Shown: positions 19,531 to 29,488, counted from the stretch's first letter. The stretch: DNA of 64,000 bases from Eggerthellaceae bacterium (GCA_022791455.1 JAAVZC010000014.1:209119-273118); one strand, 5' to 3'. Numbers and translations are program-made. Notes: generated by a model from the sequence alone, not told the origin.

Positions 19531-19555
19531 CGAAGGAGCCCCGAAGAGCTCCTTC
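19531..19555. terminator. Hairpin, probable terminator of the molybdoenzyme operon
   Basis: GAAGGAGC-CCCGAAGA-GCTCCTTC; TTTATT follows on the minus strand. Confidence 0.6.
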
Positions 19556-27758: not shown

Positions 27759-28277
27759 GTGGCCAATACGCCCCAACATATTATTGCGAAGCGGCTGGTG
27801 AGCGCCTTGGCGCTGGTGGTGTGGGCCTGCTTCATCTTTGGGTTTTCCGGACAGAACGGCGGGGAGTCTGGCGGCCTGAGCGCGCGAGTGGCAGAGACGC
27901 TCGTGAGCTTCGGCGACCTGCTGACCGGCGTCTCTACCACCGGCGCGGCGCTGGATGCCGCCGTGGAAGCGCTGCAATTTCCCATTCGCAAAGCCGCCCA
28001 CATGACCGAATACGCCATCCTAGCCGTGCTGGCGCTGGTGCAACTGCGCCTATGGCCCGCCTTCAATGGCAACGAATCGCAGCTGCGGCGCGCTGTCGGC
28101 CTCGCATGGGGCTTCGCTGTGCTCTACGCCGCCACCGACGAGATCCACCAGCTATTCGTCCCCGGCCGCGCCGGCCTGTTCACCGACGTGATGATCGACG
28201 CCACCGGAGCCGCCCTCGGCCTGCTGTTGGCCGCCACCATCATCGTCTTGCGCACGCAGCGGAAACGCACCCCATAA
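27759..28277 (+). CDS. VanZ-family membrane protein
   Basis: IFGFSGQ; IRKAAHMTEYAILA; YAATDEIHQLFVPGR...DVMIDATG. Confidence 0.9.
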   Translation: MANTPQHIIAKRLVSALALVVWACFIFGFSGQNGGESGGLSARVAETLVSFGDLLTGVSTTGAALDAAVEALQFPIRKAAHMTEYAILAVLALVQLRLWPAFNGNESQLRRAVGLAWGFAVLYAATDEIHQLFVPGRAGLFTDVMIDATGAALGLLLAATIIVLRTQRKRTP

Positions 28278-28488
28278 AAGGGAAGGAGCCCCGAGAGGCT
28301 CCTTCTTGTCGCAGTTGCTTTTGCCAGGCGCGTTTTGCCTTGGTGCGGTTGTACTTCGCTTCGCCGTGCACGCCGTGGCCGCAGGCGAAGCCGTTGTAGC
28401 GCGGGTTCTGTGCCAGCGTGGCCTCGTCGGCCGACTGCCGCCACACCGCACCACTTTTCGGCACCGCACGCTTGTGCTTCTTGGACAT
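28240..28488 (-). CDS. Small basic protein (82 aa), candidate alternative ribosome rescue factor
   Basis: MSKKHKRAVPK...GHGVHGEAKYNRTKAKRAWQKQ; GGAGG RBS; TGcTACAAT extended -10 upstream; terminator inside the ORF. Confidence 0.7.
   Translation of the reverse strand: MSKKHKRAVPKSGAVWRQSADEATLAQNPRYNGFACGHGVHGEAKYNRTKAKRAWQKQLRQEGASRGSFPFMGCVSAACARR
28274..28305. terminator. Hairpin terminator downstream of vanZ-like gene and inside the small basic ORF
   Basis: GAAGGAGCC-CCGAGA-GGCTCCTTC; CCTTTTAT follows on the minus strand. Confidence 0.75.
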
Positions 28489-28543
28489 CCTCTCACCTCC
28501 TTCAATAACCGGGAATGCAAGAGCGCCATTGTAGCAGAACGCA

Positions 28544-29413
28544 CTACCCCCTTGCGCAGAGGGCGAGGCCCTGCAGCGTGAGGGCGGGATGCACGCGAGG
28601 ATGGCAAGCAAGATGCTCGGCCAGTTGCTGGGCGTTTTTGCCGGTGATAAGAACGGGAATAGACTCGGGCGCCTCTGCCGCCGATTCGCCGGACGCAGGC
28701 TCCACCGGACCGGCTCCCTTTCCGCCAGCCATCTCCGCCGCAAGCTCGGCACGGGCCATGGCAACCAAGCCGTCGATGCGGGCCACTTCGCCCCAGAACA
28801 CGCCAGACGCGATGGCCTCCTGGGTGGTCTTGCCCACCACCTGCCGCGGCGCCCCCGCCTCCACTTCCGGAAGCCGCGCCGCCACGTGAGAGAGCGTGCC
28901 CACCGAAGCCTCGAAGCCAGGTGCAATCATGCCACCCGCCAGCGCCCCCTTCGCATCCACCACGGTAATGGCCGTGGCTGCTTCCAGGTGTACCACGATA
29001 CACGGCGCGCCCGCCAGCTCGCGCGCCGCCAGCGCATCCGCGACCCGGTCGGCCCCCACTTCCGCGGGGTTCTTGCAGGCAATGGCCATGCCGGTCTTCA
29101 GCCGCGGCCCCATCACCAACACGCGCCCTCCGGTTTCCGCCGCCAGTGCTTCGCACCACACATCGGTAAGTGCCGGCACCACGCTTCCCAGCACCACGGA
29201 GGGAGCCGCCACAGAAAAGCCCATATCGCCCCCGCCCCACTGTGGTGCGAACGCCGCCAGGCCGCTGCGCAGCTGCATTCGCGCTTCGTCCGCCGTCAGG
29301 TGTTCCGGCGTGCTCGTTTGCCAGGAAGCCGCCAGCTCCCCATTCTCGAACAGCCCGAATTCCGTCACGGCGTTTTCCACCATCACCGTCAGCACCATCG
29401 TCGCTTGCGCCAT
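28544..29413 (-). CDS. Type III pantothenate kinase (CoaX)-like protein lacking ATP-binding motifs
   Basis: NPAEVGADR, GGMIAPG, VVGKTTQEAIASG retained; DxGNT reads MVENA and DFGTAT reads HLEAAT. Confidence 0.8.
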   Translation of the reverse strand: MAQATMVLTVMVENAVTEFGLFENGELAASWQTSTPEHLTADEARMQLRSGLAAFAPQWGGGDMGFSVAAPSVVLGSVVPALTDVWCEALAAETGGRVLVMGPRLKTGMAIACKNPAEVGADRVADALAARELAGAPCIVVHLEAATAITVVDAKGALAGGMIAPGFEASVGTLSHVAARLPEVEAGAPRQVVGKTTQEAIASGVFWGEVARIDGLVAMARAELAAEMAGGKGAGPVEPASGESAAEAPESIPVLITGKNAQQLAEHLACHPRVHPALTLQGLALCARG

Positions 29414-29488
29414 CAGTCCTCCTTTTCCGATTGGGTTATAGTAGCCCAATCGGATTGTTCGCGCGCCCACGGAAAGGACCCGTGCCTC

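Follow-up and report, generated by a model that had tools for sequence, protein, structure and literature searches.

A small basic protein gene of Eggerthellaceae with a conserved terminator-like hairpin inside its reading frame: a candidate tmRNA-gated ribosome rescue factor

In the genome of a bacterium from the family Eggerthellaceae, a small gene runs through a terminator-like hairpin before it reaches its stop codon. Is this overlap an accident, or is the protein made from an mRNA that naturally lacks a stop codon, and if so, does the protein rescue stalled ribosomes? The gene lies in a 64,000-nt stretch of DNA that was analyzed as a whole (the window), and the original prediction was that it encodes a rescue factor like ArfA or BrfA. 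Whether a species can do without trans-translation, which is an antibiotic target, depends on its alternative rescue factors; the Eggerthellaceae are abundant human gut bacteria that metabolize drugs and polyphenols. A full-text literature search found no paper that links Eggerthella to ribosome rescue and none that describes this gene family.

The small ORF is on the minus strand, from an ATG at 28488 to a TGA at 28242-28240 (by direct reading and translation; Table 1). Its 82-aa product (MSKKHKRAVPKSGAVWRQSADEATLAQNPRYNGFACGHGVHGEAKYNRTKAKRAWQKQLRQEGASRGSFPFMGCVSAACARR*) has a predicted pI of 10.8, with 17 Lys and Arg residues to 4 Asp and Glu. All of the elements that had been described for this locus (the ORF, its extended -10 element, its ribosome binding site, and the hairpin with its T-tract) are in place. 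A consensus scan found no -35 element upstream of the ORF; at 24 of 61 related loci, a TGnTAnnWT word is present in the 80 nt before the ATG. The Shine-Dalgarno sequence (GAAGGAGGTGAG) is an almost complete complement to the 3' end of the 16S rRNA, and it is found, exactly or as a one-base variant, 5' of the ATG in nearly all of these 61 loci. The upstream neighbor (28547-29470, minus strand) resembles type III pantothenate kinases (Pan_kinase, E = 3e-43); its score is far under the NCBIfam equivalog cutoffs.

Codons 1-61 form a conserved core with a basic N-terminus and the motifs VW.QSAEEATLA, P.YNGFACGHG.HG, and KYNR.K.KRAW. We scanned the small protein, along with 30 relatives and another 10 that are distant, against Pfam, NCBIfam, and PHROGs, and all matches were at chance level; the only Pfam matches for the protein or the 30 relatives were Rapsyn_N and DUF7289, both below the cutoff. 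One relative in UniRef is labeled as "DUF5872 domain-containing," which we regard as spurious: current Pfam gives no such match. (The only mention of DUF5872 that we found in the literature is a paper on an algal virus.) Profile searches against the sequences of PDB chains (E <= 10) returned just noise (E > 0.1) and no chain from a rescue factor. One of these matches, to bL32 (E = 0.29), is at noise level and was not trusted. Rfam had no match in window positions 28100-28700. An AlphaFold2 model of the small protein has low confidence (pLDDT of 62), with a short helix at residues 20-27 and a long basic helix at residues 42-62, and Foldseek found no fold that matches it. Such a model would fit a peptide that takes on its fold only when bound to its target, but it proves nothing.

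On the strand of the small ORF, the consensus scan identified one terminator-like site. Its stem (28305..28282) has 10 bp, including 6 GC pairs, and is followed on the minus strand by CCTTTTATGG; RNAfold retains this stem in both the minimum-free-energy and the centroid structures. The stem and the T-tract are in frame with the ORF and together read EGASRGSFPF, and the stop codon comes about 11 codons past the T-tract. Codons 72-82 are probably neither transcribed nor translated. The predicted non-stop product (residues 1-71) has a pI of 10.8 and a net charge of +11, as compared to 10.35 and +8 for residues 1-55 of ArfA.

The arms of this stem also resemble signals for translation initiation. 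The 5' arm (GAAGGAGCC) has the same word as the Shine-Dalgarno sequence of the gene (GAAGGAGGT), while the 3' arm (GGCTCCTTC) resembles an anti-Shine-Dalgarno sequence and could in principle pair with the Shine-Dalgarno sequence of the same mRNA. In other subgroups of the family, just GAAG(G/A) of the Shine-Dalgarno-like word is retained in the stem.

Table 1. Features of the small gene and of the gene that converges on it (window coordinates)
Feature	Position	Strand	Basis or remark
Extended -10 element, TGCTACAAT	28528..28536	-	Direct reading
Shine-Dalgarno sequence, GAAGGAGGTGAG	28492..28503	-	Spacing to the ATG of 3 nt (7 nt from the GGAGG core)
Conserved coding core, codons 1-61	28306..28488	-	Alignments and codon variation
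Terminator stem-loop, GAAGGAGCCT / CTCG / GGGCTCCTTC	28282..28305	-	Terminator scan; encodes EGASRGSF
T-tract, CCTTTTAT	28274..28281	-	After the stem; encodes PF; expected 3' end of the transcript (predicted)
Non-conserved tail MGCVSAACARR, codons 72-82	28243..28275	-	Column identity 0.1-0.2 after F71
First in-frame stop codon, TGA	28240..28242	-	Begins 39 nt past the stem
Convergent vanZ-family gene	27759..28277	+	Pfam VanZ, E = 1.4e-20; NCBIfam vanZ_1

We considered whether the hairpin might belong to the convergent vanZ gene, or to a repeat element, and overlap a spurious or over-extended ORF by accident. The 3' end of vanZ overlaps the tail of the small ORF, and the vanZ stop codon (28275-28277) is only 4 nt from the stem. 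A similar hairpin also occurs elsewhere in the window, at 19535-19552; this word is one mismatch from GGAGCC-N6-GGCTCC and is far from any copy of the gene. However, the exact hairpin word occurs just once in all 64,000 nt, and we rejected a genome-wide repeat on this basis. Furthermore, the T-tract is 3' of the stem on the strand of the small ORF and not on that of vanZ, and the small ORF has a conserved Shine-Dalgarno sequence and is clearly under selection as a protein (see below). The vanZ gene is downstream in none of the 61 related loci, which nevertheless have the hairpin. We also rejected a conserved gene neighborhood: coaX is shared with one of these loci only, and no neighbor recurs. 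The vanZ gene is not part of the small-ORF unit. The original prediction had allowed that the hairpin could be only the vanZ terminator; the related loci argue that it is more than that, and we find an accidental overlap hardly credible.

We gathered 211 relatives of the protein by a word-indexed search and 259 by a profile search of 1.84 billion representatives, and we fetched 61 genomic loci for the main subgroup and 80 for the second subgroup. In a codon alignment of 60 genes, W16, EEATLA, P29, YNG, ACGHG.HG, KY.R, and W55 are conserved, while the codons vary freely: L25 is encoded by five different codons, and A23 and G33 by four each. Because the amino acids are conserved while the third codon positions vary, selection has acted on the protein.

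Past the KYxR motif, the RNA is conserved as well. We used a strict test: after KYxR, there had to be a stem of 9 bp or more with perfect pairing, and 4 or more of the 9 nt that follow it had to be T. A stem and T-tract of this kind start 23-61 nt past KYxR in 90 of 111 distinct genes, and in all 90 of these the stop codon is beyond the hairpin (median distance of 76 nt, range of 8-1146). As controls, the same test identified hairpins in 0/111 of the upstream coding parts and in 15/2220 (0.7%) of the dinucleotide shuffles. The 21 genes that failed have mostly imperfect stems or weaker T-tracts.

Codon use points the same way. In the stem, there is almost no synonymous variation: GAA accounts for 56 of 56 codons, GGA for 53/57, GCC for 57/57, GGC for 56/56, and TCC for 53/53, so that the entropy of synonymous codons is about zero. 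Outside the stem, the same amino acids are encoded by 2-5 codons each. The stem is paired in 99% of the cells of the alignment (60 sequences). One pair has changed on both sides, from A-U to G-C in 4 sequences, with G-U intermediates in 3, and two other pairs vary on one side only. After ...QEGASRGSFPF, column identity falls to 10-20%, so protein conservation ends at the T-tract. ORFs in the family range from 74 to 451 aa, and their tails are unrelated in both sequence and length. Overall, a terminator-like hairpin with a T-tract is conserved inside the coding ORF and is under selection at the RNA level, and the tail is unconstrained. That the hairpin would precede the stop codon across homologs while the tail varied is what the original prediction had proposed to check. 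It had also described the tail as hydrophobic, which is correct for this copy but not for the relatives, whose tails bear no resemblance to it.

Could this nevertheless be an ordinary small protein gene, in which translation ends at the downstream stop codon some or all of the time? The peptide EGASRGSFPF would then be a functional C-terminus, and the hairpin would be a leaky terminator, stabilize the mRNA as a 3' structure, or act as a pause site or attenuator in translation. The 3' end of the transcript is a prediction, and the T-tracts of some loci are short or interrupted (CCGTATTTA and CGTTCGTCT, for example). Also, in subgroup 1, the stem is so conserved that constraints on the peptide and on the RNA are not fully separable. 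However, the window's type of stem (GAAGGAGCCT/GGGCTCCTTC) is just one of several. The stem in Slackia is AGAAGGGGCC/GGCCCCTTCT, which encodes KGPHGPFF, and other subgroups have GAAGGCCCCTGC/GCGGGGGCCTTC, GAAGACGCCCGC/GCGGGCGTCTTC, GAGGAGGGCGGC/GTCGCCCTCCTT, or GAAGGGACCCGC/GCGGGTCCCTTC. These stems differ in sequence, but they are in the same position, a T-rich run follows, and the stop codon comes later still. They encode different peptides, such as GPHGPFF, EGPCIRGGLPF, EDARTRGRLPY, and EEGGHGRPPFL. Another argument against an ordinary gene is that synonymous sites are frozen in the stem and nowhere else. Finally, the unrelated tails sometimes enter the next gene. In one locus (L039, 3001-4353), there is no stop codon for 1146 nt past the terminator, and the 451-aa frame enters an msrAB-like gene; in another (L043, 2911-3609), there is none for 431 nt, and the 233-aa frame enters a gene for a membrane protein. 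We consider it improbable that this is an ordinary gene. Genuine ArfA proteins, which we aligned as a positive control, have the same layout: a conserved core, a segment that is encoded by the hairpin, and ragged tails.

In-frame fusions such as those at L039 and L043 can mislead automatic annotation.

The source genome contains a second copy of the gene, on contig C15 (28412-28657; locus L163, 1513-1773). This paralog has TGCTAGAAT at the same distance, the same Shine-Dalgarno sequence, and the same stem, with a stop codon 16 nt past the stem. It has a HigB/Gp49-like gene and an HTH gene as a pair upstream and ORFs of 228 and 217 aa downstream. In addition, several genomes contain partial copies that comprise the last ~20 codons and the terminator (KRAW...QEGASRGSFPF). 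Two of these are about 1 kb from a full copy (G234:C12:63265-63333 in genome G234 and G240:C1:871860-871919 in genome G240), and in Adlercreutzia sp. Marseille-QA1605, a partial copy is within ~5 kb of a full one (L061 and L046). In two other genomes (G018 and G043), we detected a partial copy and no full copy. Where a full copy is nearby, the partial copy has the appearance of a segment that was inserted at, or that duplicated, the gene's 3' end. A Parvibacter metagenome-assembled genome has two full copies (L001 and L002) about 7 kb apart on one contig (CANSTH010000004.1), and L001 has a mismatched variant of the stem, with the peptide ASRAPFPF.

The family has a narrow distribution. It is present in 105 of 301 Eggerthellaceae genomes, from 25 of 64 genera, and in 4 of 33 genomes from two sister families in the same order. 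It was absent from all 184 of the genomes that we sampled from other families of Coriobacteriia. Among ~387 other Actinomycetota, there was a single marginal match (E = 4e-4), and it is interrupted by a stop codon. The family is confined to the Eggerthellaceae and these two sister families. Carriers in culture include Adlercreutzia equolifaciens, Parvibacter caecicola DSM 22242, and Slackia equolifaciens DSM 24851.

Some distant relatives do without the hairpin. Among the best 150 representatives, about 14 are just 61-65 aa long and have an ordinary stop codon roughly where the hairpin would start. The original prediction counted homologs with a stop codon before the hairpin as evidence against it; what we found is a minority of distant relatives that have an ordinary stop codon and no hairpin in the ORF. 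They are from AT-rich metagenomic contigs of unassigned taxa, and one Coriobacteriales genome has such a form, too. Of two stop-bearing relatives (65 aa in L075, 1427-3538, and 62 aa in L073, 1-3189), one is surrounded by HIRAN, SNase, and SSB genes, and the other has a GmrSD/HNH gene about 1.5 kb upstream of it; such surroundings hint that the ungated form resides in mobile elements. A tblastn search of 72,556 plasmids and 50,697 phages had no match to the stop-bearing relatives. Because these distant relatives have ordinary stop codons, the fold is older than the gate, and because they are in mobile-looking DNA, the protein fold may have another primary function.

We then asked what else the host has for rescuing ribosomes. 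The source genome (2.6 Mb, 93% complete) encodes one tmRNA, with the tag GKKSFQSAPALAMAA, and SmpB. It has just two genes with RF-1 domains, and at 361 and 375 aa both are the size of RF1 and RF2, so ArfB seems to be absent. Neither ArfA nor the N-terminal domain of RqcH was found in this 93% complete genome. A genome with tmRNA and SmpB and none of the known backup factors (ArfB, ArfA, and RqcH) is in line with the original prediction.

Across the Eggerthellaceae, 44 of the 301 genomes have a third RF-1 domain gene, which is weaker, shorter, and of the ArfB type. Only 5 of the 301 have both this ArfB-like gene and the small-gene family, and at least two of these are good genomes. In 11 genera, most or all of the sampled genomes have the ArfB-like gene and none matches the family. 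About half of the 301 genomes have neither. The complementarity between the two is loose, and it is confounded by phylogeny, as relatives are not independent, so we regard it as suggestive only.

What, then, does the gene make? The brfA gene of Bacillus subtilis has a terminator in its coding region, which yields a stop-less mRNA and a tmRNA substrate (PMC6881298), and by this precedent the most likely reading is that our small gene also encodes a tmRNA-gated protein; we consider this highly probable. The alternatives that deny the gate are weak, and the main alternative keeps the gate and changes the activity of the protein. We infer termination at the T-tract, tagging by tmRNA, binding to the ribosome, and recruitment of a release factor, as follows. 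The extended -10 promoter and the near-perfect Shine-Dalgarno sequence would give strong expression. RNA polymerase would stop at the in-frame intrinsic terminator (codons 62-72), which would leave an mRNA without a stop codon, and a ribosome that reached the 3' end of this mRNA would stall. As long as trans-translation worked, tmRNA-SmpB would tag the product (with GKKSFQSAPALAMAA) for proteolysis. If trans-translation were saturated or lost, the untagged protein would build up. Its basic C-terminal helix (KYNR.K.KRAW...) might then serve as a probe for the empty mRNA channel in other stalled ribosomes. The protein has no GGQ motif of its own and might recruit a release factor to free the peptide.

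The last steps of this scheme are where a different activity has to be weighed. A tmRNA-gated small basic protein could instead be a nucleic-acid-binding stress regulator, a ribosome-silencing or hibernation factor, or a stress signal that was derived from a mobile element and then co-opted. The conserved in-ORF terminator speaks for gating, not for what the protein does, and the protein is not similar to any known rescue factor. The neighbors of the stop-bearing relatives (HIRAN, SNase, and SSB genes or, ~1.5 kb away, GmrSD/HNH) and the HigB/HTH-like pair that adjoins the source-genome paralog would also fit another role, and many Eggerthellaceae lack both the family and ArfB. On the other hand, the only experimentally characterized genes of this stop-less design are rescue factors (PMC6881298, PMC8012679). 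Also, a gate of this kind makes sense mainly for something that is needed once trans-translation fails, and the family and ArfB are nearly exclusive at the level of genera. We think that an activity other than rescue is unlikely, albeit the most serious of the alternatives. For the full reading, a basic protein of ~71 aa whose mRNA naturally lacks a stop codon and which serves as a tmRNA-gated backup rescue factor of a new sequence family, we put the chances at about even.

If this reading is correct, then the protein would be a new adaptor for release factors, and the non-stop gate would have evolved convergently in a third phylum. It would also become possible to predict from genomes, by a simple rule, which species can dispense with tmRNA. 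The stop-bearing relatives would show how such a gate can arise, namely when the terminator of a gene shifts into its reading frame. More broadly, candidate rescue factors can be found, independently of sequence similarity, by looking for ORFs that contain a conserved terminator. Here, this signature points to a family in Eggerthellaceae genomes that lack a known backup system.

How does the family compare to the known rescue factors? ArfA (YhdL, PF03889), from beta- and gamma-proteobacteria, is a backup to trans-translation and is made from an mRNA that is cut at a hairpin inside the ORF. Our family resembles it in being a small basic protein with an in-ORF hairpin and in having a tail that, unlike the core before it, is not conserved and varies in length. 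However, ArfA's hairpin is mainly a site for RNase III, whereas the one here is built like an intrinsic terminator. The two proteins are also not homologous. PF03889 did not match the protein, the 30 relatives (E <= 1), or anything in the whole genome, while the control from E. coli did match. The proposal that HGEAKYNRTKAKR is a core like the KGSY.RK of ArfA did not hold up: when we aligned the profile of the family to an alignment of 18 ArfA sequences, hhalign gave a probability of 0.1% (or 0.2% with E. coli ArfA alone). Nor does the consensus of the family include a conserved Lys-His pair (the KH motif): the K4-H5 of the window copy is not a conserved pair, as position 5 is mostly Arg across the family. 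With PF03889 and the profile comparison both negative, we rejected homology to ArfA. The basic C-terminal KYNR.K.KRAW is present. In ArfA and BrfA, the C-terminal KH motif is conserved, and it binds to a pocket in the channel through which the mRNA enters (PMC8012679).

There are also parallels to two factors that use different domains. In ArfT (from Francisella; a KGG-repeat family) and in ArfB (YaeJ; with an RF-1 domain), a basic helical segment senses the empty mRNA channel, and the basic helix of the small protein is a candidate for the same role. In contrast to ArfB, the small protein does not match the RF-1 domain (PF00472), and its sequence lacks a GGQ motif; in contrast to ArfT, neither the protein nor the 30 relatives match a KGG-type repeat. 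ArfB-like genes are found in other genera of Eggerthellaceae, where they are largely exclusive with the small-gene family. Neither ArfT nor ArfB is described as being made from a stop-less mRNA in PMC6881298 or PMC8012679.

The closest parallel is BrfA (YqkK), an RF2-dependent rescue factor whose in-gene terminator acts as the tmRNA gate and whose structure on the ribosome has been reported (PMC6881298). Both are small, basic, stand-alone genes with a rho-independent terminator that lies within the coding sequence and precedes the stop codon by about 10 codons, and both products have a basic C-terminal region and no GGQ motif. A narrow, lineage-specific distribution is likewise common to our family, BrfA, and ArfA (PMC8012679). 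An intrinsic terminator that precedes the stop codon within the coding region, as in brfA, is found in the window copy and in 90 of 111 relatives. The differences are that BrfA is from Bacillus and our family is from Actinomycetota, that our family has no conserved KH motif, and that some of its distant relatives have ordinary stop codons. Also, profile searches of the PDB with two alignments of our family (E <= 10) did not find a BrfA chain, and there was no match in NCBIfam. For BrfA itself, the mRNA is stop-less and tmRNA tagging gates the product; here, the terminator design is read from the genome. According to reviews, more small factors that recruit release factors probably exist beyond the reach of sequence similarity (PMC6881298, PMC8012679). 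The small gene might, somewhat tentatively, represent a third, independently evolved family of tmRNA-gated, release-factor-dependent rescue factors, the first in Actinomycetota and one that is found in Eggerthellaceae and their close kin only.
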